A stretch of DNA of 53,995 nt, filler included, from Jimgerdemannia flammicorona (Eukaryota): assembly GCA_003990765.1 (NCBI GenBank). It is 3 parts of 3 records of this genome, joined end to end, with 100 filler letters (N's around TTAATTAATTAA, not from the genome) between each part and the next. Parts side by side here need not be neighbours in the genome. Positions count along the whole stretch, not along the records: positions 36,069 to 53,995 come from RBNJ01002361.1; 2 more parts are not named here. One strand, given 5' to 3'. Position numbers and translations under genes: made by a program. Shown here piece by piece: positions 1-51,812 of this stretch (position 1 is its first letter; every line of letters starts with the position of its first letter). The notes beneath the pieces are model-generated. The model ran no database searches and was not told the DNA's origin. It worked only from the letters and a program-made list of their open reading frames with translations.

Positions 1-1109
1 GGAGACTCTGTGTGGATTACAGAAAACTCAACTCAGTCACTGAAAAGGATGCTTATCCTTTGCCCAGAATCGATGACCTTTTGGACCAGCTACAAGATGC
101 CAGATACTTCAGCAGTATGGACCTCTTTGCAGGATTCCATGAGATCCCCATGGACCCCAAGGACATTCAAAAGACAGCTTTCCTTGCTCTAGGAAAACTG
201 TTTGAATACCTCTGAATACCCTTTGGACTTTGCAATGCACCCCCCACCTTCCAGAGGATGATGAATTCAGTCTATGCCCCCTTGATCCACCACTGTTTGA
301 TTGTATACATGGATGATTCCAACATCTATTCAGCAAATTTCGAAGAACACCTGCACCACCTAGAGGAATTCTTCAAGCTCACCTGCAAGAATCACTTGAG
401 ACTGAATGCAAAGAAATGCTACTTTGGAAAACAGAAACTCGAATTCCTAAGATTTGTGGTTTCAAAAGAAAGAACTCATGCAGACCCAAAGAAAACCAAG
501 AAGATCAACAATTGGCCAGTACCCAAGACTCCAAAAGAAACACTATCATTCCTGATGCTAGTATCCTACTACAGAAGGTTCATCAAGGATTTTGCCCAAA
601 TCGCTGCCCCAATCCGAATCCTTCTCAAGAAAGGAATGACATTCAAGTGGACAGAATCACAGGAAAAAGCCTTCAGAGAACTCAAGAACTGGATGACTAC
701 AGCACCAATCCTTGTGCGCCCCAATCTGCAGAAGCCATTCATCTTGTATACAGATGCTTCCAAAGATGGCCTCGGAGCAGTTCTAGCCCAAGAAGGATCT
801 GACCAACAGCACCATATGATAGCTTATGCAAGCAGGGCTACCAATCAGCAGCAGATGAACTATGGTAGTACCAAACTGGAATGCCTTGCAGTAATATGGG
901 CAGTCACCCTGTTCAAGCATTACCTCATCGGAAAAAGGTTCACTCTGATTACAGACCATGCAGCCCTCAAATGGCTATTCAACTGCAAGGAACCTGCCGG
1001 AATTCTAGCCCGCTGGATCCTTATCCTTCAGGATTACAAAATCACCATCATTCACAAAGTAGGGAAAGCCCACAACAATGTTGATATACTTTCCTGCCAG
1101 CCCCAATGA
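1..1109 (+). pseudogene. pol: Reverse transcriptase-RNase H (family A)
   Basis: DYRKLN, YPLPRIDD, PFGLCNAP, YMDD (306-317), LYTDAS, TDHAAL; one in-frame TGA at 213-215 (likely from CGA). Confidence 0.95.
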
Positions 1110-2173
1110 ATCAGAGAAAGGGTGTCCCAAGGAACCACACCCTAAAGGAAGCTCCTCAGACCATCGAAGCACAGGAAGATCTTATCCAAAAAGAACATCA
1201 GAAAGCCCACCAAGGACAGACAAGTATAGAAGACAGAATTCGAAAACAATATCAACATTGGCCCCACCTCAGAACTCAAGTTCGGGACATCATTCAGAAA
1301 TGTGATACCTGCCAGAAGTACCAAGGAAAGAAGAACTATCAAGTCCCTCTGAAACCGATTCCCCCACCCACTCACATCTTTCAAAGATGGGAAGTAGATG
1401 TAATTGGACCTCTACCAGTTACACCAAGAAAAAACAAATACATCTTTATATTTGTAGAACATCTGACCAAGTGGCCCGAGGCTTTCCCAATGGAAATCGC
1501 AGATGCCTTAACCATTGTAGGCCTCCTCCATGGACTCACACTCAGATATGGACCTCCAGAAGAACTCATCTCTGACTGAGGCACAGAATTCATCAACAAT
1601 ATAATCACAAGTTATGCCTGAATTCACAAGATCCACCTCAAAAGGACCACATCATACCACCCTCAGACCAATGGCATGACAGAAAGAATGAACCAGACCA
1701 TCAAGAAAGGACTTGCCCAAGTCAACCCTACTAATTGGGACCTCTGCTTACCTGAGATCCTGTGGGAAATTCAAAATACCCCTGCTACTTCCACCAAACA
1801 AAAGCCATTCGAAATGATGTTTGCCAAGGAAACCAGAACTGCTGACCATGAGAATCTCGGAGACCTCCTCAAGAAGGCAGAACAGTTATGAAATCAAGCC
1901 CAAGGACAGATTATCAAAGCCCAGGAAAGACAAAAGAAGTACTATAACCAAAAACAGAAAGATCAGGAGATCAAGATTGGAGATTAAGTCTTAGTCTGGA
2001 GAAGCATGATTGAGACAAACTTTGCCGCCAAACTGGAACTAAAATGGGAAGGATCTTACCTTGTACACAATATCAGAGGAACCAGCATCTATTTAAGAAG
2101 CATGGATGGACGAACCCTGAGAACACCAGTACACATCAATTACCTCAAACTATATTTCCCCTCCACACCATGA
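1106..2173 (+). pseudogene. Stand-alone integrase ORF (family A)
   Basis: ATG overlaps the RH stop (ATGA); HQKAH...CDTC zinc finger, VDVIGP, ISD*GTEF, YHPQTNGMTER, KWEGSY; several CGA/CAA-type stops. Confidence 0.92.
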
Positions 2174-2685
2174 GCCAAAGGATTGATCAGTGCCTCCAGA
2201 CATTGGTCCTCAGCTCCTTCCAAGCCCTACCTGTTCCTCTACCCCAATTCGGCCAAGCCAATGGAAGCCCCCTTCAAAGGATCCAAGCTCATCAAGAAAA
2301 TCTCACCTTGGTCAGATGCCTACTACAAGTCCACCAACTGCAGGCCTATTATGCAATCGGTGAACAATTGCAGAACCTCCCAGCCTCAGAACAAACCTAT
2401 ATCAGAAATACTACAGGTCTGACCAGAAGAGACACTACTGCCGCAGACAGACTATACACCATTTATAAACGAAATATCACAGCCCTGATACAGGCACAAT
2501 TCTCCCTGAATGATATTCAAGGAATGAACCCTGTTACTTATCTGAGCATCATCAACTCTGTCGAAATCCTATTCCCTGAAGAAGAAGAAGAGCCCCTAGA
2601 ATGGAGTAATCCCAGTACAGACAATGAAGATGATGGAACAGGTATAGATACAGAAGCAGCCTATGCTTATTGGGATGATGACTGA
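2170..2685 (+). CDS. ORF3, 171-aa unknown protein with acidic tail, between IN and PPT
   Basis: Open frame; ATG overlaps the IN stop (ATGA 2170-2173); homologs at 13488-14007, 46480-46960 and 10438-11349. Confidence 0.8.
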   Translation: MSQRIDQCLQTLVLSSFQALPVPLPQFGQANGSPLQRIQAHQENLTLVRCLLQVHQLQAYYAIGEQLQNLPASEQTYIRNTTGLTRRDTTAADRLYTIYKRNITALIQAQFSLNDIQGMNPVTYLSIINSVEILFPEEEEEPLEWSNPSTDNEDDGTGIDTEAAYAYWDDD

Positions 2686-2712
2686 AGAATAGTCTGAGAC
2701 AGACTACTCTTC

Positions 2713-2724
2713 AGTGGGGGCTGA
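2713..2724 (+). promoter_or_regulatory. Polypurine tract
   Basis: agtgggggctga directly before the LTR TG; equivalent sequence in A2 at 13448-13459. Confidence 0.7.
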
Positions 2725-4043
2725 TGTGATAAGCCAAGATGTACCACCCAAATCATATCTTAACCAGATGACGCGAACAAGATGATGTGAATACTCAGCT
2801 TAGTAATCAGCAACTCTTGCTGCGGGAAACTGTATAAATAGCCAGACATACCAGAAAGGGTCTGTTTACCTGTACAGACTCTGTACACCGTACAGACTCT
2901 ATACACTGTACAGGTCCTGTACACCATACAGACTCTGTACACCTGCCATAAGTAGCAGATCTATAGTTAGCCACATAGTAACCAGGTAGCAACCAACTTG
3001 TATAAATTACCCCAGAGGCGAGAGTGAATAAAAACCTCAGTCCGAAATACAAACACCAAAGAAGTCTCTAAAGATTGGGCATTGGTCCCCTTTCCACTCT
3101 GGTCCACTTTCCGATATAAAGAAGAGCCTGATACATTTTTGGTTCGCTTGCCAGATAAGCCTGAAGAATTCGAGTTTGCTGTCTAAGTTCAAGGAAGAAC
3201 TTCGCTGCCTTTGGAATTATTGTTATTGGTTTGCTTGCCAGATAAGCCTGAAGATTTCTGCTACCTTTCTTGCCACAAGCCAGTCTTTCTGATGCAACTT
3301 TGCAGTGGAGCCAGTCTACGATGTAACCCCATGCAAACGAAGCCAGTCTTTGACATAACTTGCCAAGAATCCGAGTAGTATTCCCAGTTGAAGCCGATTC
3401 AGGAAGAATCCATGCCACTCGAGTTATCCGAGTTATCCGAGTTATCCAAGTTATCCGCCGTTTCTAAGTTATCCGCTATATTCCCAGTTAAAGCCGCCGT
3501 TTTCAAGAAGTCCGCCGATTCGGGAAGGATCCGCATCATCCACCATTTCCAAGTTATCTGCATTCCCAGAAGAGCCTGATTTGTGCCTTCCGAGTTATCT
3601 GTTATTCCCAGTGAGCCTAGGAAGAATCCACGCCATATGATTCCCAGTGAGCCAAATCGAGTTATCTGCCAAATTATTAGAACGTCCCGCATAAGGAAAC
3701 TGCCATGCTACACAGAGATCATCACGCAGAAATTGCATAAGGAGAACCGCTAGATTGCCAGACCATCACACCCAGAGATTGCATACTTTTGGAGATTGTC
3801 ATGCTACACAAATTGTACCATTCCCAGTTGACCCAAGAAGGAAGCCCATTCACACACAAATCGCCACTACACCCAGAGAACCATCCCAAAAAGGAAACCA
3901 CTTGCACAGTATCCAGATCTTGACTATTATACTGCTAAACACTAAGAACATTTTGTTGCTTTTAACAAAGTAACTGGGGGCTCAAGCCAAACTACATCAA
4001 CCCCCAACCTTGTAATTTGCCTCCATTGAGCTGGCACGTTATA
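2725..4043 (+). repeat. Family A 3' LTR (about 1.3 kb) with internal 18-bp and 9-bp tandem repeats
   Basis: tgtgat...gttata (CA decayed to TA); both ends match A2 LTR 12140-13447 and the right end matches 48713; AATAAA near 3027. Confidence 0.85.
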
Positions 4044-7000
4044 ATAGGTTTATGGTACTTCTTGAGTCTGTTTCTATATACTATAGTAGGCAGTACATAT
4101 GGTCTCTGAGAGTTTTCTAAGCCAAAAGATAGTTCTCTTGATATATTATACATAGAAGAGTTCTTTCTATTTGGACTCCAGTTTTCATAACTGTAAGACT
4201 TCTACCATATTTTGATAAAGTAAGACCTTTTCTCTGATTTGAATGAGTTTTAAGGTCTTGTAATTCTTTTCTGTATTCTTTCTTATTAAAACTTATAACT
4301 TGGTAATATAATCTTCTGTCTTCTTCCTGATTTAGTATAGTCTTCAGATTTCTGAGTCAATCTATCACTAAGTTAGGTCTAGATTTATAGCTAAGGTTTT
4401 ATCAGAATCTTCTTCTCTGAAGAGCAGTTCTCTTAGGGTAAAGTATATACTCTGTGACTATATATCTTATAGGACAGAGAGGGCAGTTGAGAGGTAGTTA
4501 TCCCAAATTCTCATATATGTCTAAGATCTTGGCCAGAATTTTCTTGAGGGTCTTGTTTGTTCTTTCTATCTGTCTATTTTCTTGAGAATGATATATAGTA
4601 GTCTTGATATACTGAATCATGTATTTCTGATACATTATCTTATAGAATCTGTTGACAAATTCTATACAGTGGTCTGTAGTGATTTACCTTAGTATCTTAT
4701 AGTGGCAGATAATTTCTTGATATAGGAAGTCAGCAATAGAGAGAGTATTGACTTCTTGTAATGCTCCTGCTTCAATCCATTTAGTAAAGAGATCTACAAT
4801 AACTATAATATAGTAGTTTCCTAATAGAGTTACTGGTAGTGGTCAAATGATATCTATTACAATGTGGTGAAAGGAGATATATTCAATTCTTAATAAATTA
4901 GATATCTGGTCTCACTGATCTTATTTCTATTTTTGACACTTATCATACCCTTTAACAAATTGACATAGGTCTTCTTCTATCTTAGGCCACTATATAGTTC
5001 TTCTTACCTTATCATATATTGGTTCCTCTTAAGTATCCTTGTTCATATACTTCCTTTATTACTTGATACTTCTTATATTCAGATATAATGAGCTTTTCTC
5101 CTTTTATAAGTATGGTATTATCTAGTTCAAATTGTTTTTAAGTCTGGTTGATGATGGTGATAGTCAAGAGTTTGAGATGGTTGGATATCTTCTACTGCCC
5201 AAGATAACTAATTAATCTATAGTATAACTTCTTATTCATATTGAATAGTCTTGATGAGAGTATTTTGGAGTATTCTTGAGAGTGCATCAGTATTGGTATT
5301 AGTTCTTTCTGGATAGTATTTGATTGTACAGTTATACTCTTGCAGTCTGTAGATCTATCTAATATATATTTCTTTGGAGTTCAGAGTGTGGAATAGCTAG
5401 ATGAGAGCAGAATGGTCTGTTTGAATAGTGAAGTATTTTCCAGCTAGATAGTAGTAGAACTTATCTACTGCCCAGACTACTGCTAAGTATTTAAGCTTAG
5501 TAACTCATAGTTCTGTTCTACTCCATGGATACCTCAGCTTATATAAGATATAAGATATTTATATCTATCTTTCTTCTAAGCTAGAACTGCTCCAAGTCCT
5601 ATAGCACTTACATCTATCTGCAGAATGAACTCTAGGTTCCAATCTGGTCTTCTGAGGATAGGTGCTTGGGTCAACTTAGTCTTGAGTTTATTGAAGATTT
5701 CTTAATATTCCTTGGTCTATTCAAACTTAATCTTCTTCTTCAGTAGCTCATAGATAAATACTATAATGTTAGATTATCTTTTGATGAATCTCCTATAGTG
5801 AGAGGTCAGTCCAAAGAAGACATGGACTTCTATAGTTGTTCTGGGTCTTGGGTAGACTGCAATAGTCTCAATCTTCATAGAGTCTGAATAAATTCCTATC
5901 TAATTGATGATATATCCTAGGTAGGCAATTTCTTGAGCTACAAATGTATATTTCTTGGACTTGATGTAGAGACCATACTCCTTGAACTTCTTAAGAGCTA
6001 GCTGTATATGGTTGATATATTTCTATATAGTATTGCTAAAGAAGATTACATCATCAATATAGACAAAGAGCTATTTTCCAATTTCATTACTGAAGACTTT
6101 ATTCATCATTTGCTAAAAACTTGCTGAAGCATTGCACATTCCAAATGGTATTCATAGGTAGACATAGGTGATATCAGATATGATGAAGGCTGATTTCTCA
6201 CTGGTATCTTGAGTAAGACTGATCTGATAGAAGCCTGAGAACAGATCCAAGGTAGTGTAGTATTTGGCTTCACTTCTAAGTAGTGCTCTAAATAAGTTAA
6301 TCTGGATAGGATTCAAATCTCATCTGGATCAACTCAGATGAGATTTGAATCCCATCTAGATCAATTTGAATCAACCATTATTTTGATTTCCAAATTAGAC
6401 AATTAAATGTTTATATCAATAACTTGATGAATAATCATCCAAATTTGATGATCTTGGAGTCATTTGAAAGCCTTTAATAAGGCCATTCTAATGATATCAA
6501 GATCATTGAAATTGGATTATATATTGTCGAGATATTAAGGAAAACATTCTTTTGATGTAATTTCCAAAATTGATAAGTCAAATAATTTTCAAAATCAGTA
6601 AGTCCAATGTTTTCCTTAATAACTCAGCAATATATAGTCTGATTTTAATAATCTTGATATCATTAGAAAGGCCTTATTATGGGCCTTCAAATGATACTAA
6701 GATTATTAAATTTGGATGATTATTCATCAAGTTATTAATGTAAACATTTAATTATCTAATTTGGAAATTAAAACAATGGTCAATCTGGATGGGATTCAAT
6801 CTGAATCAATCCAAATTCAATCCAGATTAAATTGACTCATTAGGAGTACTACTTCCAAAAGTGGTAGAGATTTCTTGAATATTTAGCAAGAGCTGTCTAT
6901 CCTTCTTAGTAATTGTATTGAGCTTCTTGTAATCAACAGAGTCTTGGAGCAAACTCTCCAGGCTTGCTTTCTTTCTTTGAGGTAAGAATAATAAATGAAG

Positions 7001-10000
7001 CCCAGGGGCTGATAGCTTGCTTGATGATACCAGCTTCTTCTATTTTCTTGAGTTCTGCTTGTAGCTATTCTCTATAGACAGATAGTATAGATCTGACTTT
7101 CTGATAGATGGGCTTGGTATTACTGGTATCAACTTCATAGTAGTACTTGGGTTCTTAATTGTAGATATCCCTAAAGTCTGTAGTAAGTACTTCTTTATTC
7201 TGGTATAGGATCTTGAAAAGTTGTTCTTCTAGAGGAAAGTTTTCTCCAATAGTATATATATGCTTGTTCTGATTCTTGTCTTTCTTGTACTCAAGTTCAG
7301 TAATCTTAGTAATAGTATAGGCTCCTCTTCTAGTAGATCCAAAGTCTTGTTTTTCTCTCTTAGTCTTGATAAGTTCAATGGCTTCAGTGATCTTAGGCTT
7401 CTTAACTTCATAGATCAGCATCTGACCAATCCTGTCATGCTTCATAACTTCGAATGAGGTGGTGGGGTTGTGATTTCTGACTATAAGAAAGATCTCACTA
7501 TATAATCAGAGTCAATGACTCCTTTTTTAACTAAGATTTCACTCTTGGCCAGACTGCTTCTGGTCTTAATAATTCTGATATAGTTCTCTGGTAACTTGAC
7601 TCTAATTCTAGTATCAAGTAGAGTGGTGGCCTGTAGTTCAAGGATAGTATCTCAAATACTGATAAGGTTCATTTCTACAGCTCCTTCAGTCTTATATTCT
7701 AGGATCTTAGCTTTGGGGTAAAACTTCTTAACCTTAAGAGTGATATCTAGTTCTTGTTTCTCCTCATCATCACTATTAGCTTGAAGCTCTGGGGGCTGGT
7801 CATATTATTCAGTTTTATTTTTTGCTTCAGCTGCTTCTTACTCATATCTTTATTGACAGATTTTTCTAACTTCACTGATATTAGACCAGTAGTCATTTAG
7901 GTGTTCAGAGCAGTATATTCAAATATCATAGAGGTATCTTTCTTAAAGGACATAGCTATCAATGATCTTGTTATACTACTGCTCATCTGTGAGCTTAGTT
8001 GTCTTACTCTTATTCTTATATACTAAGTATATGAAGACTTCTGTGTTCTATTTATCTCCTTCCTCTATATCTGATAGTACTTCTTTGTGGACATTAATAA
8101 AGACTCATACTTTTCTTTCTCTATAGTTGATCTATATCTTCTAGACATTGAGGTCAATAATAGCCTTGATCTTATGAAGCCATTAGTTATCAATAAGAAT
8201 GTCATAGTTAGTAGAACTCATAATAATTACATCTACTAGGATAATAGCTCCTCTAATCTTGATAGAGACTCTTTGATCTTACCTAGGAGAGTAGCTCATA
8301 TATCATCTGCTATAATATAGACTATTCTGGTGGATTCTTCAATATTCCAGCCTAAGCAGTCAATTGCTTTCTTACTTATGAGACATCCTTCAGCACTGGT
8401 ATCAATAATAGCATTAAAGATACAATCTTCAATCTGATATTAAGTATAGGCTGAGGTCTTGTACTGATCTTCAGATTCTTCATCTGAGTCTTCTTATTCA
8501 TCTTCTTATATATTATGAGCTTCTATTATCTTGTACTCTTAGTTTTTAATAGTAGTTGCAAGTTCTGCTCTCAACTACTGTCTGAAGGCAGAGACTTCTG
8601 CTAGTTGTTCAAAAGTAGCATTGACCTTCTGTTCCTTAAGGTCCTTATAGATATCATATTAATAAATCTTAGTCTTACACAGCTTCTGTTCTTTCTTATT
8701 TTCACTTTCTTCTGAGACTAGAGTAGTGTCTTCAATAATTTGATAGATAGCTTTATCTAACTCAATGTCTTGATCAATCTTCTCAGGTTGGGTCTTACTT
8801 TGAATAATGATAATTGGGGTCTTTTTTGGTCTTTCAACTGGCTTGCTATTGCTCTTCTTATCATAGGGCTTGGATTTGGTTCTGGTAACTTTAGTAATAG
8901 GATAGAATTCAGACTCCTTATAGTATTTTTCATCATCAGTATCACCAACCTCCTCAATGACTACTGTATTGATTTGTTCTCTAGTTCTGAAAGTATTACT
9001 TAGTTGGGCTCTATGCCTTATTTTGGTCATGCAATTCTTTACATAGTGGCCTTCTTCTTCACATTTAAAGTATATAATAGTGTGTTTCTCTATAGTAGCT
9101 ACAAACTTCTGTACTGATCTCCTGTTGGTACTTTATACTTCTCTAACAACATCATTAAGGTGTGTAGTCATCTTAGCAAACTACTGGGCAAGTTCCTCCA
9201 CTGGGTCAGCTTTGGCCATCTTGGAGGTAGGCGGGAATAGTTGTCTGTTGAGGTATGATACTAGTTGGCTTTAGTGACTCTATCTTGATACTAGTTATCC
9301 TTTTTATTGAGTATTCAGTAGAGTGTCTGACAGTCCAATATCTCTGTATAAAAACCACTTTCTGGTCAAGGGTCAGAGCAGCTAGAGTAGACTGAATTGC
9401 TAGGGCAATTTTATAGTAGACTCTTTGAATCAGCTATCTATTCTTTGAGGATATCATTATAGCTAGCTAAGATAATCTAGTAGCAGATTCAAGTATAGAA
9501 TGAGTTGGGGTCTTCATTAAGTCCTTAGCAGATAGTATTAAGTTGATCTTTGAGAGCTTACTTAATCTGTTCAGTATAGTATATAGTTCTGAGGAAGTTC
9601 TTTATATTGGTGAGTTTGGCTGTACTATTGTTGACAATGGTGGCTATATCGAACTTATCTTTGATAGGTCCTCTGAGGCTGACAGGTAGAAGGACCAATT
9701 GTACTTCAATACTGAGAGCTTATATAGTGGCAAATTATTCAAAGTCTTCAATGAAGGTCAATATTGACTCTTCAGTAGTAAATTCATAGAATGTGTTAAG
9801 ATATATTTCTATCTTATCTTGAATTCTTGCAGAAGGTAACTCTTGAAGTCAGGGTAGTTATTGTAGTTATTATTCATTATTCAGCTTAAAAGTAAGGGAT
9901 CCTAATAGTATTACTAGCTAATGGGCACCAAATTGTTACATAGTGAGTACTAAGTTCTCTAAGTATATCAGATTCTCTTCAAGATGTATCTCTTAGACCA

Positions 10001-16884: not shown

Positions 16885-17280
16885 GTCTGAACTCCCAAAT
16901 CCTTTAGCTTGTCTTGTTTCTTTAGTCAGTTCAGAAACTTCTTGTAATTGTGGGGTCTTGACCTTCATGAAGACTGCTTGGGCAATCTTCTGTCCTCTAA
17001 TAATTCAGTACCATTCTATACTACTGTTGAGTAGGATGACCTTGATTTCACCTATATATCCTCGGTTAATAATTCCTCCTTCTATGGTTATTTTTTGCCT
17101 GGTAAGTCCAGACCTTGAGGTCAGTTAGATATAAGTTTCTTGGGGTGGCTATATGGCTAGTCTGGTTCTGATTATAAATGTTTTTTCAGGCTTGATAGAT
17201 TCATCCTCCAGACTATAAAGATTATATCCTATATCTTCTGGGTGAGCTTTGGCTAAGGGGTTGGCCTTGGGATGTAGTAG
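16885..17280 (-). pseudogene. dut: dUTPase domain (family A)
   Basis: Translation gives GYNL, SRSGL, GGIINRGYIGEI, KIAQ, RQAKGFGSS (trimeric dUTPase motifs 1-5, partly decayed). Confidence 0.9.
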
Positions 17281-25780: not shown

Positions 25781-25879
25781 CTTACACTAATATAATCAAC
25801 TATAATATCTTCATTGACAACTAGTAGCTTTATAAAGTCAGAGCAATAATTGATCTGAATATCCAAAAGATATAAATTA

Positions 25880-28800
25880 TCTACTGAGGATAGAAGATAT
25901 GGATCTCCATTAATATCAATAAAGGAGTATTCCCTGAAATAGAGGAAGAAAAAAGTGAGTAAGAAGAGGCCTATATAGTAACTATTCAGAAAAAGAAGAA
26001 AGTTGGATAGATCAGTAAAGAGAACTGGTACAAGAAGATTATTAAAGAATATATACTACAAGAAGTCTGCCCTTATAGGATCAGAATATACTGCATAGAG
26101 CATATTAATAACTGCTATCAGTGTTCCAACACAATCAAGAAGATCTACTATAAAAGAAGATAGAAGATCCTTGAGAAACAGATAAGAGAAGAGAAAGAGG
26201 AGAAAGAGGATAATGAACCACCAGTTCTTTTGGAAGATAGTGATGATGAAGAGATCAAGGTCAAGATTTGAAAAATCCATCTTGATGTAGTTCTATCAGA
26301 ATATAAGTCAGAGAATATAGCTGAAATAGTTATTGCTATAGTAGAAGAAACTATACTCAAGTCCTAGACAACTACCCTACTTATAACTGATCTAGAGATA
26401 ACTATTCCAAAAGACCATATTGGAATCCTTAAGACAAGAAGTAGTCTGACCAAGAGTGAGATTACTATCAAAAGAGAAGTCATTGATTCAGATTACATTA
26501 GAGAAATACTACTCATTACTAGAAACTACAACTCTATGATTCCATTTTCAATCAAGAAGAACTGACTAGCACAGATATTAATCTTCCTAGTTTTTCAGCC
26601 AAAGATTATAGAAGTCAAGAAGTTTGAGAAAACAGAGAGAGAAAGGAAGAGATTTAGATCTACAGAAGAGGAGTATTTGCTAGTACTAAGATTACCAAAC
26701 TGGACCACAAGAAGGAGGAAACTACAAATAAGCATAGCTATACTATTGGAGATAAATTCTTACTCAAGAAGGAACTCAAGAAGACCCTCTATGAATTCAA
26801 GGGTATCCTAGCCACAGACTTCAAGGATATTAAGGGAAAGACTCTATACTACTATCATAATATAGATATAGGAGATACTGAACCAATCTATCAAAAAGCA
26901 AGACCAATACTGCCTGCCTACTATGAATAGTTCAGAGAAGAAATCAAGTAGATAGAAGAAGCTAGTATCATTAAAGAAGTCAGTAGTTCTTAGGTTTCAC
27001 CAGTTATACATACTAGTTCTGAAAAAAGAAAGCAAGCCAGAAGAATTTGCCCCAAGGCTCTGCACTGATTACAGAAAGCTCAACTTGGTTATCAAGAAGG
27101 ATTGTAAGTTACTACCTCTCATTAGCAACATTCTTGTAACCTTGGGAGATAAAGTACAATACTTTAGCACTTTAGACTTATATTCAGAATTCTATCAAAT
27201 TAACCTCACAGAAGCAGCAAGCAAGAAGTCAGTCTTCATTACTCCAGACAGAACTTATATCTATCTATGAATATCATTTGAAATGTACAATATATCAGCA
27301 AGCTTTCAGTGAATAATGAACAAAATCTTCTACTATAATATAGGAAGATAGATGATAGCTTATGTGGATAATGTTATCATCTATAACAAGACACCAGAAG
27401 AACAACTGCAGTATATCCAGCAGATGATAGAGAAGCTAAGGAAGTATGGTCTTTATATTAAGCCCAAGAAGCATAAGTTTGCAAAAATTGAGTTCTCTTA
27501 TTTTGCCCATATTATTAACTGAGATGGAATACATACAGACTCTCTCAAGATTCAAGCAGTAGTAGTATACTCAAGGCCCAATACTGTCACTGAAGCCTAA
27601 GCCTTCATGGGACTTATCTCTTACTACTGCAGATTTATCAAAGGATTCTCCAACATTGCAGGCCCAATCTATAAACTCAATAAGAAGAATGTTAAGTTCC
27701 AATGTACTGGCAGACAATAAAAATTATTTGATGAACTCAAGATTAGACTGACCCAAGCATCTATCCTCAGAAGACCTGATTGAACTCAGGAATTTATCCT
27801 ATAAACAGATATAAGTACATAAGGACTAAGAGCAGTCCTGGTCTAAAAGAAAGACAAAGTAGAATATATAATTATATATCTCAGCTGAGAAACCCAAGAA
27901 GCTGAAAAAGAGTATGAATCCTATAAGTTAAAATATCTTATAGTTATCTGGGCTATAGAGAAGTTCTACTACTATCTTATGGGAAGATACTTTATTATTT
28001 AGATAGATCACTCAGCTCTCACTTAGCTACTAACTACTGGGCAATCTAAAGGAATCTATGCTAGATAGATTATAAAGTTGCAAGCCTATGATGTAACTAT
28101 CATACATCACTATGGAAGAACTAATACTAATATAGATACCCTCTTACAGATACTCCAAAGAACCCTCAATCAGCAAATCAACTATGAATAAGAAACTCTA
28201 CTATAGAATTATCACCTATTGGGAACAGTAAAAGATACCCCAATATCTAGAAGAATAGATACAAATGATCATCAATAGAACATGGAAACAATTTGAGACT
28301 GATGGAGAAATAATAAAGAAAGAAAAGCTACTAGTTATATCTAAACATAAAAAGAAGCAAGTAATGAAATCAGTATACAAACTTGGCTATCTAGGAGGAA
28401 CAAATATATATAATAAAGCAAAAACAACAATGTGATAGCCAGAAATAGAGAAAGATATCAGATAATTTGTCAAGACCTGTAATAAATATCAGAAACAGAA
28501 ATAAGACTAACAAAATCAAACCCTCAGATCAGCATACATAGAACTAGTACTCTTTATACATATTGCAATTAACATAATTGATCCTCTACTCTTGACTTTG
28601 ACTAGCAACTGATACATTATTATCATCATAGATCTTTTTATAAAATGGATAGAGGCAGGACCTCTTAAAGAAGCCAATACACAGTCAATTGCTGATTTCT
28701 TTTACAAAGAAATCATCTGTCAATTCAAGACTCTATTGTAAGTAATTATAGAGAGAAACAAAATTCATGAACTATTCTTTGAGATTCTCTACAAGAATTA

Positions 28801-29090
28801 TAAGATCTAGTATATTTGAACTATAATCTATTACCCTCAGAGAAATAGATAAGCAGAAAGGACCAACAAGAATCTCAAGAATATTATCACTAAGATCTGT
28901 GATAATTATGAAAACTGAGATCACTATCTGCCAATAGCATTATCTGCTCTTTGAAATATCTGATCACAAAGTACCCATTTAACCCTCAAGAGATGCTTAT
29001 TTGGAGAAGAAAGTTCTCAAGGAATCTTATTGTCCAATAGAGATACTATATGGAAATATATAGATATAAAGATATAGAGACTATATCAAA
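25880..29090 (+). mobile_element. Family B fragment B3 (end of PR, dUTPase, RT, RH, most of IN)
   Basis: Colinear with about 42970-46180, with many transition-derived stops. Confidence 0.92.
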
Positions 29091-30194: not shown

Positions 30195-30279
30195 ACACAC
30201 CTTTCACTAGTAACATTCAGGTGACACAAGACTCAGACAACACTTTCAACAGCATTTTTAGTGAAAGGTGACTAACAAT

Positions 30280-32198: not shown

Positions 32199-32229
32199 GC
32201 TGGGTTCTCAAATTCAAACATTATTCAAT

Positions 32230-40682: not shown

Positions 40683-40706
40683 TAGTCTCTATATCTCTAT
40701 ATCTAT

Positions 40707-41173
40707 TGTGATGGTGTAGCCATATTTGGAAGAAGGAAATAGGGAACAGACACTTGATCACACTCAGTCCCAAAGTAGTATAGCCACATAGTTAGTAGTC
40801 CTCAATTCTGCCATTTGCTAAATATTTCGCAAAGTGCAAGATCGAGCTTCTCAATTTAGTATAGCATTTCACAACTGGCGAAATATTTTGCAAAGTGTTA
40901 AATGACTCATAACTTAGCCACGTAACCCAGTAACCATCTCATAGCTAGCAAACTTGTATAAATAACCCAGTATCTTCGAGTGAATAAACTTCAGATCAAA
41001 ATAGTTCAAAGCAAAGAGATAGTAAAGGAACTAGTAAGCCTGCAGGCAAATATACTTCGAACTCACCCACCCTCCCCTGTAACTTCAAGAGACTCTGCGA
41101 GAGTCAGAACAGTCAAGTTTTCAAGATACAGAAATCCGACATACTTTTAAGAGTAAGTGTTCGCTATGTTATA
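40707..41173 (+). repeat. B1 5' LTR
   Basis: Direct repeat of 46955-47421; TATAAA and AATAAA inside. Confidence 0.95.
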
Positions 41174-41176
41174 ACT

Positions 41177-41193
41177 TGGTGCCCATTGGCTGG
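41177..41193 (+). promoter_or_regulatory. Primer binding site TGGTGCCCATTGGCTGG
   Basis: TGG 3 nt after the LTR; conserved in B2 (9914-9930); tRNA identity unresolved. Confidence 0.75.
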
Positions 41194-41287
41194 TAATTCA
41201 AGACGAATCCTTCACTTTCAAGCTGAACAACGAACAACCGCCACTACCTGAATAACCATACAAACCGAGCCCCAATACCTAGACAAA

Positions 41288-44200
41288 ATGGATATAAGAC
41301 CACCAGTATTCCATGGATATACCTCAGATGAATCGATCATCACCTTCATTGATGATTTTGAGCAGTATGCTGCTGTAAGGACCCTGACAGCAGCATAGCA
41401 AGTAGCCCTCATGCCCTTCAGCCTACAAGGCCCTGCCAGAGCAGTATTCACAGCTGCAACCCATGCAGGAAATAATGCTGATGCTATACTGACAGTACAG
41501 AAGACCTGGCTCTAAAATACATATTATACAGATGAAATCAAGCAAGCTCTGAAGGATCAGCTCAATACAACATACCAAGGAATAAGCGAGGATCCAAACA
41601 CATTCTATACCAGAATTCGATATCAGATAATCCTTGCAGATTATGCTGCTACTATTCGAGATCAAGTAGTCAAAGCAACCTTTATGAAAGGAGTCCATCC
41701 AGAAATAGCCATGGCTATCCGCTTATCACCAGTGATCCTGGATTTGCCACAAAAGGTCACCTATGCTCAGTGATACTGGATAGCCAGACACCCACAAGAC
41801 CATACAATGGAGAGAGTTACAGGAGTCAGAATCAAAGCACCCAAGGCAACCAGTGTGATCCCTATCACAATGATCAATCGAAACACACCTCAGCCAAAAG
41901 CTACAGAGCAGAAAAAGAACAGTGACCCTATGGAGGAACTCACCAAAAGGTTTGCTGAAATGACTACCCACCTGGGAGATGTGGTAAAGGAAATTCAAGG
42001 AAGAGACCACTGCCCTATTCAGAAGTTTGCCGCCACCTCAGACAAGAAGAAAGGTACCTGCTATAGCTGCAGAGAAGAAGGCCACTACTCCTATGAATGC
42101 ATGAGCAAAACCAAGCGCAAGGCTCAACCAAGCAATACTATATGAAATAAGGAGCAGGCCAATACAATTACCTTTGAAAAAATTGGAGATTCTGACAAAG
42201 AAGAATGGGAGGCCTATCCTGCTCAGACTACCAAAAAGGATGCTCGCAAGGAACTCTACAAGAGACTGCCAGGAAGACCCAAGAAGAACCCAGTGGAAAA
42301 GCGGATGGAAACTGCCACAGTAAGCCAAGCCAAAGAGATGGACCAAGATATGGAGCTGGAGCAAGCAGTTCAAGATATCATCTGAGGAACCACTCTAGCC
42401 AGTGAAGGAGAAAAAGAAAAGAAGCTTCACAAGACCAAGACCTTCAAGTATGACATTTTCAAGGACCTCAGTCAACAAAAGGTCAATGCAACCTTTGGTC
42501 AGCTTACAGAAATCCCAACATTCAGACAGTAAATGAGGTTTGGACTTGCTGAAACAACCAAGGAATAAGGATTGAAGATAACTGAGGCCAATAATGTTCA
42601 AGAGGACTCAGGAGAAGAAAGTGAGGACAATCGCAAAACCTCTGCTTATGCAATATGCCAAATCGAAGATAGAATCTTTGAAGCCATCATTGATATGGGA
42701 GCAGGAGGATGTCTCCTCAGCAAGAAGGCAGCGGACTGCCTAGGTTGGGATGTAGAAGAAGCAACTAAGCTGGTGTTTGTCACAGCCAATGACACAAGAG
42801 CCACACCTCTGGGAAAGATCAGAGATGTTCTCATCAAGATTGGAGGAGCAACAATCCCAGTAGATGTAATTGTAACCAATACCACCAACTATGACATCCT
42901 CATCGGCAATCAATGGCTTCACAAAGCCAAGGCAGTAATCGATCTCAATACTCAGAAGATGCAGATCACCTACCAGGGACAGAAGATACAAATTCCCATC
43001 AATGTCAACAAAGGAGTCCTGCCTGATATGGAGGAAGAAGAGAGCGAGTAAGAGGAAGCTTATATGGTGACTACTCTAAAGAAGAAGAAAGTTGGATGGA
43101 TGAGTGAAGAAGAATGGTGCAAGAAGATCGTAGAAGGCTGTGCACCACAAGGAGTCTGTCCTCACAGGATCAAGATGTACTGTATGGAGCATGTCAACGA
43201 TTGCTACCAGTGTACCATCGGAATCAAGAAGACCCACCAGGAAAGAAAACAGAAAGCTCTCGAAAAACAGATCAGGGAAGAAGAGAAGAAGGAAGATGAC
43301 GAACTACCGGCCCTCCTGGAGGACAGCGATGATGAAGAAAAAATCAAGGTCAAGATTCAAAAGATCCACCCTGATACAGTCTTACCTGAATACAAGTCAG
43401 AAAATACAGCCAGAATGGACATCGCTATAGTAGAAGAGACTGTACTAGAACCCCAGACAACCATCCTACTCACAACCGGACTGGAAATAACCATTTCAAA
43501 AGACCACGTTGGGATCCTCAAGACAAGAAGCAGCCTGGCCAGAAGCAAAATTACTATCAAAGGAGGAGTCATCGATTCAGACTATACTGGAGAAATTCTG
43601 CTCATTGTCAGGAATCACAATCCTACAATTCCATTCCCAGTCAAGAAGAAGGACCAATTGGCACAGATGTTGATCTTCCCAATCATACAACCAAGGATCA
43701 TAGAAGTCAAGAATCTGGAGGAAATGAAAAGAGAAAAGAAAGGATTCAGATCCACAGGAAGAGGAGTATTTGCCAGCACCAAGATCACCGAACTCGAGTA
43801 TAAGAAAGAGGAAAACACAAGCAAGCACAGCTATACCATCAGAAATGAATTTCCACTCAAGAAAGAACTCAAGAAAATACTCCATGAATTTGAAGATGTC
43901 CTTGCCACAGACTTTAAGGATATCAAAGGAAAGACCCCACACTACTATCATAAAGTAGATACTGGAAACACCGAACCTATTTATCAGAAGGCAAGACCTG
44001 TCCTGCCAGCCTACCAAGAATGGCTCAGAGAAGAAATCAAGCAGATGGAAGAAGCTGGCATCATTAAAGAAGCCAGCAGCCCCTGGTCCTCACCTGTTGT
44101 ACTAGCCCTGAAAAAGGGCAGCAAGCTTGGAGAATTTGCCCCAAGACTCTGTGTTGACTATAGAAAGCTCAACATGGTTACCAAGAAGGATTGCCAACCA

Positions 44201-45280
44201 CTGCCCCTCATCAATAACATCCTCATAATACTGGGAGATGAAGCACAGTACTATAGCACTTTGGACTTATACTCAGAATTCCACCAAATCAGACTCACAG
44301 ACATGACAAGTGAAAAGTCAGCTTTCATCACCCCAGACAGAACCTATGTCTACCTATGAATGCCATTTGGAATGTGCAATGCACTAGCAAGTTTCTAGCG
44401 AATAATGAACAAAATCTTCTACTATAACATGGGAAGATAGATGATGATCTATATTGATGATGTAATCATCTATAGCCAGACACCAGAAGAACACCTGTAG
44501 CACATCTGGCAGATAATGGAAAGACTGAGAAAGCATGGCCTATACATCAAGCCCAAAAAGTGCAAGTTTGCAGAAATCGAGATCTTCTATCTTGGCCATA
44601 TTATCAATCGAGATGGAACACACATGGACCCCCTCAAGATACAAGTGGTAGCAGCATACCTAAGGCCCACTACTATCACAGAAGCTCAAGCCTTTATGGG
44701 ACTTGCCTCCTACTATCACAGATTCATTAGAGGATTCTCCAATATTGCAGATCCAATCTACGAACTCAACAAGAAGGATACTAAGTTCCAGTGGACTGGT
44801 AGACAACAAAAAGCATTCGATGAACTCAAGGTCAGACTGACCCAGGCACCCATCCTCAGAAGACCTGACTGGACTCAAGAATTCATCCTACAGACTGATA
44901 CAAGTATATAAGGACTAGGAGTAGTCCTAGCTCAAAAGAAAGATAAAGTGGAGTATGTCATCACATATCTCAGCCATGGAACCTGAGGAGCTGAAAAAGA
45001 ATACGAATCCTACAAGTTGGAATGCCTCGCAGTCATCTGGGCCATAGAAAAGTTCCACTACTACTTGGCTGGAAGACACTTCACTATCCAAACAGACCAC
45101 TCAGCTCTTACCTGGCTACTGACAACTGGACAACTCAAAGAAATCTATACTAGATGGATAATGAAGTTGTAAGCTTATGATGTAACCATCATACACCACT
45201 CTGAAAGAACCAATGCCAATGCAGATGCCCTCTCATGGACAACCTGAACTACCTCCAAGCAACAAATCAATCATGAATAA
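41288..45280 (+). pseudogene. gag-PR-dUTPase-RT-RNase H in a single frame (1331 codons, with in-frame stops)
   Basis: PPVFHG, CYSCREEGHYSYEC, IIDMGAG, dUTPase GGVIDSDYTGEI/KKGFRSTG, DYRKLN, YIDD, LQTDTS, NADALS; the frame is unbroken. Confidence 0.93.
43345..43760 (+). pseudogene. dut: dUTPase domain between PR and RT (family B)
   Basis: ARMDI, TRSSLA, GVIDSDYTGEI, LAQML, KREKKGFRSTG. Confidence 0.92.
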
Positions 45281-46463
45281 GGAGCTCTACTATGGAATTA
45301 TCACATATCTGGGACAACGAAAGATACTCCAACATCTGGAAGAATGGATACAAATGATTATCAACAGAACATGGAAATAATTTGAAACTGATAGAGAAAT
45401 ACTGAAAAAAGGAAAACTACTAGTCATATCAGAATACAAGAAGGAGCAAGTGATGAAATCAGTACATGAACTTGGCTATCTAGGAGAAACAAATACATAT
45501 GACAAGGCAAGGAGAACAATATGGTGGCCAGGGATGGAGGAAGATATCAGACAATTTGTCAAGACCTGTGACAAATGCCAGAAACAGAAATAAGACCAAT
45601 GAAATGAAGCTCCAGAATCAGTACATATAGAACCAGTACCATTCGCTCACATTGCAATGAATGTAATCAGCCCTCTACCCTTGACTTTGACTGGCAACCG
45701 ATACATCATTGTCATCATAGACCTTTTTACAAAATGGATAGAAGCAGGACCCCTTATGGAAGCCAATGTACAGTCAATCACCAATTTCTTCTACAAAGAA
45801 ATCATCTGCTGGTTCAAGACTCCAACACAAGTAACTATAGATAGAGGAACAGAATTCGTAAACCAGCTCTTTGAGGTTCTCTACAAGAAGTACAAGATCC
45901 AGTACATCTGGACCACAGCCTATCACCCCCAAGGAAATGGATAAGTAGAAAGGACTAACAAAACCCTCAAGAACATTATTGCTAAGATCTGCAATAATTA
46001 CAAGAACTAGGATCACTATCTGCCAATAGCATTATCCACTCTCCAGGATATCTAATCACAAAGTATCTACTTTACTCCTTGAGAAATGCTATTTGGAGAA
46101 GAATGTTCTCAGGGAACCCTATCATCTAATGGAGATGCTATATGGAAACATGTAGATATGGAAATATGGAGACTATACCAAATCAGGAAGAAGGCTGAGG
46201 ATTACATAACCAAGGTGCAGACACTACAATGGAGGAATGCTGAAAAGACCCATAAACCTTTGGAGATTATCAAGATAGGAGACAAAGTCCTGGTGTATCG
46301 GAATATGGTAGAAGCTTCATGGTCATGAAAACTGGAGCCCAAGTGGGAAGGACCTTACCTGGTGCAAGACATAAAAGGGACCACCTTTTGGCTATAAAAA
46401 CTCTCAGATATAATAATCCCCACCACTATTCACCGAAACCAACTCAAGAAATATCATAGCTAG
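45273..46463 (+). pseudogene. Stand-alone integrase ORF (family B)
   Basis: ATG in the +1 frame overlapping the RH stop (ATGAATAA); HELGY...CDKC, DRGTEF, YHPQGNG, KLEPKWEGPY. Confidence 0.92.
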
Positions 46464-46479
46464 TAACAAAAGTACTGTG

Positions 46480-46960
46480 ATGGCACTCAAGATCACTAGT
46501 GCTGCCCAAAGAGCCATCGAGAGACAATGGTGTACCACTGAGCCTCCGACTATAGAGGAGTCTTATGACAGTATCCAAAGTATTGTGCAGACTCATCTCT
46601 CTCAAATCTCACACTTCAAGGCCTACCAGCATCGAAACGAATTTCAAGAGTACTTCAAACTTGGCCAAGTACTCAACCAAGACCCAGAAATGACCAAAGA
46701 AAATTGGATCACAGAATACCAGCTCTCCTATTCCCAGATCACCATTGCTAAGAAAATTCACAAGCTATTCTGAGAGGATGAATTAGCACTAGCCCACCTA
46801 CGAGGAGTGACTCCCTCAGACTTCGAGCAAGTCAGACGATACCATTAGGAAACAGTAATGCAACAAATCACACAATATAAGACTATACAGACCATTGAAG
46901 CTTGAGAGTTTGAATAGATGCTTCAGAGACAAGATTATCTATTCAGGAGGAAGTTGTGAC
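46480..46960 (+). pseudogene. ORF3 of family B
   Basis: Aligns almost without gaps to family A ORF3; the frame continues past TGA 46771 (likely CGA); true end uncertain. Confidence 0.75.
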
Positions 46961-47421
46961 AGTATAGTCATATTTGGAAGAAGGAAATAGGGAACAGACA
47001 CTTGATTGCACTCAGTCCCAAAGTAGTATAGCCACATAGTTAGCAGTTCTCGATTCCACCATTTGCTAAATATTTCACAAAGTGCGAGATCAAGCTTCTC
47101 GATTTAGTATAGCATTTCACAACTAGCAAAATATTTCGCAAAGTGTTAAATGACTCATAACTTAGCTATGTAACCCAGTAACCATCTCATAGCTAGCAAA
47201 CTTGTATAAATAACCCAGTATCTTCGAGTGAATAAACCTCAGATCGAAATAGTTCAAAGTAAAGAGATAGCAAAGGAACTAGTAAGCCTGTAGGCAAATA
47301 TACTTTGAACTCATCCACCCTCTCCTGCAACTTCAAGAGACTCTGCAAGAGTCAGAACAGTCAAGTTTTCAAGATACAGAAATCCGACATACTTTCAAGA
47401 GTAAGTATCTGCTACATTATA
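46955..47421 (+). repeat. B1 3' LTR, preceded by PPT aggaggaag
   Basis: Direct repeat of 40707-41173. Confidence 0.95.
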
Positions 47422-48090
47422 CTATGTGTTTCTATATAGTATCTCTATTAAATAATAAGATTTCTTGAGAACTTTCTTCTTCAAATAGCATCTCTTGAGG
47501 GATGAAATAGATACTTTGTAATCAGATATCCCAAAGAGCAGATAATATTATTGGCAGATAGTGATCCTAGTTTTTATAGTTATTGCAGATCTTGGTGATA
47601 ATATTCTTGAGAGTCTTATTGATCCTTTCTGCTTGTCCATTTTCCTGAGAGTGATAGACTATAGTCCAAATATACTAGATCTTATACTTCTTATAGAAAA
47701 CCTCAAAGAACTGGTTCACAAATTCTATTCCTCTATCTGTAGTTACTTGTGATGAGGTCTTGAATTGGCAGATGATTTCTTTGTGAAAGAAATTAGTAAT
47801 TAACTATATATTGGCTTCTTTGAGAAGTTCTGCCTCTATCCATTTTGTGAAAAGATCTACAATGATAATAATATATCAGTTGCCAGTCAAAGTCAAAGGT
47901 AGAGGACTAATTACATATATCTATTATAATATATGCAAAGAGTACTGGTTCTATGTAGAGTTTTGATTTCTTAGTCTTATTTCTGTTTCTGATATTTGTT
48001 ACAAATCTTGACAAATTGTCTGATATCTTTCTTCATTCCTGGTTACTATATTATTCTTCTTGCTTTATTGTATATGTTTATTCCTTCTGA
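47422..48090 (-). mobile_element. Family B integrase fragment B4 (target of B1; continues at 40683-40706)
   Basis: Reverse-complement homology to about 45480-46180, continuous across the CTAT TSD. Confidence 0.88.
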
Positions 48091-51782: not shown

Positions 51783-51812
51783 ATTGTGATATCCCTACCA
51801 ACATTATTCAAT

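Follow-up and report, generated by a model that had tools for sequence, protein, structure and literature searches.

Integrase encoded apart from pol at a conserved stop-start junction in a Ty3/gypsy-type retrotransposon lineage

Introduction

Retroelements that carry long terminal repeats (LTRs) follow a textbook plan in which Gag and a Gag-Pol or Pol polyprotein bring protease (PR), reverse transcriptase (RT), RNase H (RH) and integrase (IN) jointly into the particle. A stretch of 53,995 nucleotides from the genome of Jimgerdemannia flammicorona (assembly GCA_003990765.1; three parts joined end to end with filler, the whole referred to here as the window) raises the question of how a Ty3/gypsy-type element is to be read when its RH frame stops and its IN frame starts within the same eight nucleotides, in different frames. 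The copies concerned belong to a family that we call family B; a second gypsy-type family in the window, family A, has a stop-start junction of its own between RH and IN.

We consider that the junction string of family B, ATGAATAA, is probably a true boundary of two cistrons in a Ty3/gypsy-type lineage in which IN has been split from pol. The split layout is conserved across a clade of related elements, as are the methionine at which IN opens and the catalytic residues of the enzyme. That IN is initiated at its own AUG, and not by way of frameshifting, read-through or splicing, is what we infer.

Results

Stop and start overlap at the RH/IN junction

The copies and junctions at issue in the window are as follows.

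1-2700: family A gypsy-type element (tblastn and Pfam)
40706-47346, plus strand: copy B1 of family B (tblastn, Pfam and an LTR pair)
25786..29089, plus strand: copy B2 of family B, spanning PR to IN, with 77% identity to B1 and a heavy load of C>T/G>A changes
4197..9581, minus strand: copy B3 of family B, gag to IN; 63% identical to B1
45273..45280, plus strand: B1 junction ATGAATAA; IN ATG at 45273-45275, RH stop TAA at 45278-45280; the IN frame is the RH frame +1
28184..28191, plus strand: B2 junction ATGAATAA, geometry as in B1
5232..5239, minus strand: B3 junction ATGAATAA, geometry as in B1
1106..1109, plus strand: family A junction ATGA; the RH open reading frame (ORF), 258..1109, ends CCC CAA TGA and IN starts ATG AAT CAG at 1106; the IN frame is the RH frame -1

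The string ATGAATAAG stands at 45273-45281 (plus strand), 28184-28192 (plus strand) and 5239-5231 (minus strand), and at all three positions RH ends at the TAA and IN opens at the ATG, just as the initial annotation of the window had described. Each RH frame ends with the motif ..N.NxDALS.., followed by 13-14 codons and then by [HY]-E-stop, the Y before E in B2 and B3 being C>T decay of H. From its ATG, the +1 frame of each copy reads M-N-K-[EK]-L-Y-Y, with the Integrase_H2C2 and rve domains following. Between the end of RH and the zinc finger the three copies align with 0 gaps (B1 45150-45460), and the nine invariant columns of ATGAATAAG, which lie inside a linker that is otherwise poorly conserved, tie for third-longest among the 777 invariant runs of a 3.2-kb three-way alignment. 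In that alignment B1 and B2 are 77% identical at the nucleotide level and B3 is 63% identical to either, so the third copy is indeed, as had been claimed, a diverged subfamily that keeps the overlap. Because ATGAATAA holds stops in both other frames (TGA and TAA), a one-base change upstream is enough to turn a -1 type of junction into a +1 type. Three related copies by themselves could share the junction string through descent.

The integrity of the junction was also checked in contigs from two public DNA runs (a soil metagenome and a second organism), of which 1609 and 277, respectively, aligned to B1 at 80% likeness or more. Across the junction stretch 45086-45304 no indel at a share of 10% or more and no joint was listed, at summed depths of 145 and 17; the runs' word shares of B1 were 0.08 and 0.06, and an unlisted row does not prove identity. 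The sole indels listed on B1 at a share of 10% or more were at 41072 and 41089.

Intact relatives of family B

Intact proteins of family B (proteins are given P numbers below, metagenome loci L numbers) include the IN proteins P0092 (415 amino acids, starting MNKELYYG), P0076 (426 amino acids) and P0093 (447 amino acids), and the RT-RH proteins P0106 and P0107, which are 74% and 68% identical to the B1 read-through and end in ADALSRMPRRTQPPYNHHE (NHHE) and ADALSRTPRNTPIKTIQHE (IQHE). Some of the IN proteins were called from an ATG further upstream, and their extra N-terminal residues (MPMLMPSHG.., for example) are what the RH end motif gives when read at +1. That motif, N-A-x-A-D-A-L-S, reads M-P-M-x-M-P-S-H in the +1 frame (window 45215-45235; P0004, P0076, P0082 and P0093), and this places two or three family B ATGs in the IN frame about 30 codons before the conserved Met, so that gene callers often start IN there.

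Such paired ends permit a register test, run by script, of whether one DNA can encode both the C-terminal end of an RH protein and the N-terminal extension of an IN protein. For P0106 and P0076, over 10 codons, two solutions exist, differing in the last base, and only with the RH stop TAA lying over IN codons 2-3; six other registers gave no solution, and neither did mismatched pairs. The result was repeated with P0107 and P0093 over the last 6-7 codons. Since only one register fits the protein ends, intact copies of both subfamilies would carry CATGAATAA.

The one close relative that bears a species name is an RT-RH protein (49% identical) of Dentiscutata erythropus (Glomeromycota); an early-diverging soil fungus is the likely host. 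The best metagenome locus among the matches listed is 48% identical to the first query. In their sources, matches bear names such as 'transposase InsO family protein', 'IS30 family transposase' and 'ribonuclease HI'.

A stand-alone integrase with a conserved methionine

A protein search with the decayed B1 IN as query returned 45 longer matches. The best 16 of these are IN-only proteins of 409-452 amino acids, 38-69% identical over 100% of the query; the first match with RT or RH domains comes at 34% identity, and fused RT-RH-IN proteins occur only at or below that value. The nearest intact relatives therefore have no continuous pol; a continuous pol in them was one of the outcomes that the initial annotation had named as refuting its proposal.

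Where these proteins begin is equally regular. Among 18 stand-alone INs that were fetched, 15 start at the homologous Met, two start upstream yet keep it, and one differs at its N-terminus; the consensus start is M-[NDE]-x-[ED]-[LI]-Y... The zinc-finger cysteines and D,D35E residues (C107, C110, D138, D198 and E234) are invariant in an alignment of 20 stand-alone INs. Conservation of the ATG across families, on which the initial annotation had staked its interpretation, is borne out by a Met at profile position 1 in 57 of the 57 split INs aligned from that position (24 of them with further open-frame residues upstream), as against none of 19 fused relatives. The extrapolated homologous residue in the latter is E in seven, R in five, L in two and P in two, with H, C and K also found, and this non-Met residue is followed by a ..DP..L..YL..G module. 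A census of RT-RH with the family A RT-RH as query against representative proteins was headed by long multi-copy chimeric proteins; its single-stretch matches include both RH-terminated proteins (such as P0284, P0294, P0298 and P0303; 46-50% identical) and fused ones (such as P0337 and P0342; 46-48%).

In an IN tree of 106 rows (limited to sequences that span at least 300 profile positions; quick IQ-TREE search with SH-aLRT, the Shimodaira-Hasegawa-like approximate likelihood ratio test, as support), the split proteins group together. One clade with a support of 97 holds 53 rows, of which 39 are split, two probably split, eight cut at the N-terminus with their state unassigned, and four fused. 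Nested in it is an inner clade with a support of 100 that includes family B and consists of 28 split and four N-terminally cut rows (32 in all). Elsewhere in the tree there are 40 fused rows and one split row.

Varied geometry around the same start

A single metagenome scan yielded at least 602 stretches in at least 80 loci, and all locus counts here are among the matches listed. Both RH and IN were found in 47 of 80 loci, 18 of them split and 29 fused, and all 11 of the closest loci are split. The geometry between stop and start varies. In L001, ..GAA GAA TGA lies over ATG AAT AAT in an ATGA overlap that puts IN in the -1 frame, while L002 has TGA, two bases and then ATG. Spacers from stop to ATG measure 30 nucleotides in L015, 62 in L005, 63 in both L007 and L013, and 74 in L014; three of these five keep IN in the frame of RH while the other two have it at -1, and L014 and L015 carry IN-frame stops between the RH stop and the ATG. 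In L031 and L040 the stop is followed by five or three codons and then M-D-P. The same Met is thus seen with an ATGA overlap, an 8-nucleotide overlap, a 2-nucleotide gap and spacers of 30-74 nucleotides. Families A (-1) and B (+1) had been reported to differ in offset while both placing an ATG at the stop, and this holds, with the family A ATGA found at 1106.

A three-cistron layout and its third frame

L001 is an intact element of the layout [gag-PR-dUTPase-RT-RH][IN][ORF3]. Its ORF1 (41..4735, 1564 amino acids) has CCHC, PR, dUTPase, RT and RH; IN occupies 4732..5988 (418 amino acids); and ORF3, at 5960..6652 (230 amino acids), overlaps the end of IN by 29 nucleotides and has no Pfam match. 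A 28-nucleotide unit in four tandem copies lies downstream of ORF3 (L001:6810-6949). In L005, ORF1 (137..4441) is without dUTPase, IN lies at 4504..5760 and ORF3 encodes 147 amino acids (5890-6333). Its ORF1 runs on for about 335 residues past RNase H (L005:3435-4441) with no Pfam match, and this extension could represent an additional domain that separates RH from IN. No LTR pairs were found in L001 or L005, whose contigs do not reach the element ends.

Candidates for ORF3 follow IN in four elements.

L001:5960-6652: ORF3 candidate
L005:5890-6333: ORF3 candidate
Window 46417-46770: ORF3 candidate of B1
Window 2044-2685: ORF3 candidate of family A

None belongs to a Pfam family, and BLASTP finds no similarity among them (best E value 0.02). 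Of the layout that had been proposed from the window, [gag-PR-dUT-RT-RH][IN][ORF3], the order as such is thus intact in L001, whereas ORF3 is present but dissimilar between elements.

A hairpin before the integrase start in a sister subclade

Outside family B, in another subclade of split elements, at least six metagenome loci have a hairpin with a 6-bp stem and an 8-nucleotide loop, CANNGUGA, after the stop of ORF1 and before the AUG of IN; a purine-rich stretch (GGUGAAAGCGAAAGUG in L005) precedes it. The hairpin regions are these.

L005:4465-4503
L010:177-218
L016:10-48
L018:494-544
L021:21-70
L011:~24-69

The stem covaries: compensatory double changes are seen at five of its six pairs, pairing extends to 97.2% of cells, and none of 500 shuffles reached the score, with slid controls pairing at 25-61%. 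Rfam gave no match on 13 loci at E values up to 1, and no second copy was seen in L005, for example before gag or ORF3. It is a structure of the sort that the initial annotation had proposed to look for, though outside family B. The hairpin may mark a different route to the same AUG, whether as an entry site, a processing site or an aid to reinitiation.

Contents of the window and decay of the copies

As judged by tblastn with pieces of the best-kept element and by a Pfam scan, the window is a eukaryotic transposon graveyard. Its remaining family B features are listed here.

40706..41098, plus strand: B1 5' LTR, 393 nucleotides, 92.6% identical to the 3' LTR
46954..47346, plus strand: B1 3' LTR, 393 nucleotides
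41516..42142, plus strand: B1 gag with CCHC zinc knuckle and one internal stop (Pfam zf-CCHC)
42569..43048, plus strand: B1 aspartic protease (Pfam gag-asp_proteas/RVP_2)
43052..44356, plus strand: B1 dUTPase and first part of RT, in the frame shared with gag and PR (Pfam)
44501..45169, plus strand: last part of the B1 RT, then RNase H; the frame is interrupted by stops at 44909 and 45170 (Pfam RVT_1, RT_RNaseH)
45245..45247, plus strand: early TGA that interrupts the RH frame of B1 only (CAA in B2 and B3)
45273..46325, plus strand: B1 IN cistron, decayed, with linker module MNKELYY.., H2C2 zinc finger, rve core and C-terminal part
47423..48078, minus strand: family B fragment, IN only, without the junction (tblastn)

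B1 reads as gag-CCHC, PR, dUTPase, RT and RH in one frame, with the IN zinc finger and core one base rightward. All three copies are dead, with three stops in the last 100 codons of each RH frame, one of them in B1 being the TGA at 45245-45247, 33 nucleotides ahead of the junction TAA. Stops in the first 221-223 or so codons of the IN frame number three in B1, 11 in B2 and 15 in B3; those of B1 are codons 36, 107 and 110, and a frameshift lies further on. C>T and G>A account for 459 of the 720 differences between B1 and B2, and the decay from B1 to B2 peaks at CpG (61% of B1 sites changed) and CpA (49%). The aligned part of B2 retains no CpG at all, and GC content around B2 and B3 (window 4000-30000) is 0.28-0.35. 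Decay of B2 and B3 resembles methylation-linked deamination, possibly with a component like repeat-induced point mutation. A TAA at IN codon 107 (window 45586-45595 and the aligned places) is common to the three dead copies, where intact relatives have Q, and it sits in a 10-nucleotide invariant run, the second longest of the 777; either CAA>TAA arose repeatedly at this place, a CpA hot spot, or the stop was inherited.

Besides these copies, the window holds a long interspersed nuclear element (LINE) with endonuclease (Exo_endo_phos, APE) and RT in two copies, 30196-34583 and 49863-53993, which are 67-81% identical and, unlike the remaining window, show a GC skew of +0.45 to +0.50 and a GC content of 0.47-0.57. 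Two more distant gypsy remnants, at 14491-17211 and 20251-22248 (minus strand), have 26-46% amino-acid identity to pieces of B1.

Discussion

By every domain test the element is Ty3/gypsy, and it departs from that group only in lacking a single pol polyprotein. B1 has flanking LTRs and a CCHC gag, protease, RT and RNase H, and Pfam finds the same set of domains in the intact ORF1 of L001. Integrase_H2C2 and rve lie downstream of RH, which is not the copia order. A pol polyprotein that includes IN is absent both from the window copies and from the intact relatives. There is likewise no chromodomain: Pfam on the intact P0092 finds H2C2 and rve only, and PF00385 is missing from the 16 best IN matches. 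Judged from the alignments and the tree, the RH/IN split is a character of a clade, beyond what the shared descent of three relics would give; the members of this clade, 38-50% identical yet retaining the zinc-finger Cys and DDE residues, suggest that the layout is probably functional.

How might such an integrase be made? ORF1 comprises gag-PR-dUTPase-RT-RH and stops 13-14 codons after the RH end motif ADALSR. IN is a stand-alone frame of about 415 amino acids, with its own Met at the start of the linker module (MNKELYY..YL), where fused relatives have E, R and others followed by xDPxL..YL. On the full-length RNA, a ribosome ending ORF1 at the UAA would restart at the AUG 5 nucleotides upstream. 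In keeping with this, stop and start lie close together: AUGAAUAA in B1-B3, AUGA in family A and L001, and UGAucAUG in L002. The formula given for coupled sites in the part of PMC5972666 that treats them is AUGnxUGA with x = 2, 5, 8 or 14, or UAAUG or AUGA; AUGnnUAA matches this formula (x = 2), which makes termination-reinitiation the best fit. We nonetheless rate coupled termination-reinitiation at the IN AUG at slightly short of an even chance. The wider proposition, that there is a large and old Ty3/gypsy clade of soil eukaryotes with a true polycistronic RNA, in which IN is expressed by termination-coupled reinitiation at a conserved AUG, is more tentative still, and we would sooner doubt it than assert it.

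Several points weigh against this interpretation and against the strength of the evidence behind it. No RNA runs with the B1 stretch were listed in the public-run search. Known reinitiation sites after long ORFs usually need an upstream structural element, and an upstream structure of the kind envisaged in the initial annotation did not turn up: in the 90-100 nucleotides before the overlapping junctions, which in family B means three decayed window copies, no fold was either conserved or stable. Folded jointly, B1-B3 give a consensus of -2.5 kcal/mol, and z-scores are +1.0 for B1, +0.6 for L001, -0.1 for L002 and -0.9 for family A. Closeness of stop and start would be expected anyway if a fused pol were split at a domain border, and the loci with 30-74-nucleotide spacers or with the hairpin are accommodated no less well by internal entry or by a separate mRNA. 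The presence of CATGAATAA in intact copies is deduced from protein ends and not from DNA; P0107 and P0093 give no solution in the register test at 8-9 codons, probably because these proteins come from different copies, and P0092 as query found no relative in viral and genome contig collections. Many of the 57 rows with Met are near-copies, the independent lineages numbering nearer twenty. The tree came from a quick search and is midpoint-rooted for drawing only, and the four fused rows inside its 53-row clade are near-identical plant proteins (Smallanthus sonchifolius; P0061, P0062, P0065 and P0066) on a branch of length 1.45, which reflect either long-branch attraction or re-fusion.

The alternative that survives best keeps IN as a separate cistron and changes only its route of expression: IN would be translated from a dedicated mRNA, produced by splicing between a 5' donor and an acceptor just before the ATG or started at an internal promoter, or would be reached by internal ribosome entry. 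There are precedents, in that foamy viruses express Pol from a spliced mRNA and gypsy expresses env from a spliced RNA. The conserved Met fits a separate mRNA as well as it fits reinitiation, the overlapping sites have no stimulatory structure upstream, some of the 30-74-nucleotide spacers in the clade carry stops in all frames, and at least six loci have the covarying hairpin in the interval from the end of ORF1 to the IN AUG. However, the AG that could serve as acceptor lies 11-15 nucleotides upstream of the ATG at varying positions in B1-B3 and is absent from the DNA implied for P0106/P0076, and family B, family A, L001 and L002 all have a stop and a start that overlap or lie within 2 nucleotides of each other, as is the case where coupling is known. 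We regard this alternative as somewhat unlikely.

A programmed +1 frameshift at or before GAA-UAA-G, yielding an RT-RH-IN fusion with the ATG merely incidental, is quite improbable. Ty1 and Ty3 use a programmed +1 frameshift between gag and pol, and the elements described here resemble them in being LTR retrotransposons with two overlapping ORFs set off by +1; in antizyme, RF2 and Euplotes, +1 shifting is stimulated by a stop codon in the A site; and the IN frame is open for at least 32 codons upstream of the ATG in the intact P0093 and P0082. Here, though, the site lies between RH and IN and not between gag and pol, the known heptamers are absent, and no Ty1, Ty3, antizyme/RF2-like or AAA-UAR motif, as these are generally known, occurs in the 98 nucleotides up to and through the junction in any of the three copies. 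The initial annotation had already disfavored one conserved frameshift, and the variable frame and spacing in the clade support it: members with IN at -1, at +1, in the same frame behind a stop and beyond spacers with IN-frame stops all share the Met, which makes one conserved frameshift unlikely, as a +1 shift cannot work in any but the second of these geometries. Fused relatives, moreover, never have Met at this place (0 of 19). The Ty3 +1 frameshift is mentioned in PMC5911963.

That a defective master copy handed down the frame break as a lesion, with the family moved in trans and the split without function, is highly improbable. The window copies would allow this, all three being dead, related by descent and sharing the TAA at IN codon 107. 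However, family B has intact IN and RT-RH frames with the same junction, which makes a private lesion unlikely; the split is common to a clade of 38-50% identity that has kept the zinc-finger Cys and DDE residues; and roughly 1900 contigs show no indel variant at the junction. Finally, a short intron over the stop that restores a continuous pol, for which one can adduce the eukaryotic host, the calling of the protein-set reading frames without intron models and the intron-interrupted pol reported for plant Ogre elements, can be set aside as barely credible; an intron of this kind was among the refuting outcomes that the initial annotation had named. There is no GT in the 98 nucleotides before and through the junction in any of the three copies, an intron could not be fitted between stop and ATG where these overlap (ATGA and ATGAATAA), both the RH motif and the IN linker module are complete on their sides of the junction, a conserved Met would be pointless, and the aligned contigs, which are DNA, show no joint at the junction.

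It is informative to set the split elements beside systems already described, the accounts cited being drawn on for the passages that concern these systems. A dUTPase between PR and RT is known in fungal gypsy elements, namely PosPlaTy3-5 of Postia placenta (PMC2864245) and Tmt1 of Tuber (PMC6431247). As far as those descriptions go, the order LTR, gag-CCHC, PR, dUTPase, RT, RH and IN (HHCC, DDE) is the same; unlike in PosPlaTy3-5 and Tmt1, IN here lies outside pol with its own Met and in another frame (+1 in family B, -1 in family A), and P0092 has no chromodomain. The CsRn1-like gypsy elements show, in the account of PMC2582038, a gag and pol that are fused, overlapping at -1, or in the same frame with a spacer of 60-165 bp. 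This variation resembles that at the boundary in the split clade, theirs being between gag and pol and ours between RH and IN.

Other parallels come from systems in which a second ORF is reached through the end of the first. Coupled termination-reinitiation is described in PMC5972666 for victoriviruses (AUGA/UAAUG), the hypovirus CHV1 (fungal), caliciviruses and influenza B. AUGnnUAA fits the x = 2 case, AUGA is found in family A and L001, and it is known that fungal hosts can support the mechanism; unlike the RNA viruses as described there, the present case concerns a chromosomal retrotransposon, and no upstream pseudoknot or element resembling a termination upstream ribosomal binding site (TURBS) was found. 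Cauliflower mosaic virus and its relatives have, by the same account, a polycistronic pregenomic RNA with TAV-dependent reinitiation (PMC5972666). Like the elements studied here, the caulimoviruses are reverse-transcribing, gypsy-related and, as described, provided with several long ORFs that are tightly spaced or slightly overlapping on one RNA; unlike them, the split elements have no protein recognized as TAV-like (ORF3 being without a Pfam match), and caulimoviruses are without IN. Among non-LTR retrotransposons, stop-start coupling or unconventional reinitiation is given for SART1 (UAAUG) and possibly LINE-1, with its 63-nucleotide spacer (PMC5972666), and this spacer, as reported, recalls the 30-74-nucleotide spacers of our clade members. 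Their split, however, is between ORF1 and ORF2, whereas here it falls inside what is usually pol, between RH and IN, in an LTR element.

A literature search, with Repbase, GyDB, supplements and most subscription journals outside its reach, found no LTR retrotransposon with a separately encoded, Met-initiated IN. What it yielded was confined to gag/pol variants, env or other third ORFs, and dUTPase.

If the reinitiation reading is true, IN is not packaged by way of Gag-Pol and has to enter the reverse-transcription complex in trans, and the strategy is one otherwise known from caulimoviruses and certain RNA viruses of fungi. Such split elements would be scored as broken or non-autonomous by annotation tools built around a continuous pol, and gene callers would report 'orphan integrases' and 'ribonuclease HI' genes from them. 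A separate IN cistron also raises questions about the dosage of IN, the route by which IN reaches the cDNA, and the access of ribosomes or transcripts to an AUG that lies about 3.5 kb into the RNA. The split-IN lineage would offer a natural, testable case of polycistronic expression in fungi.

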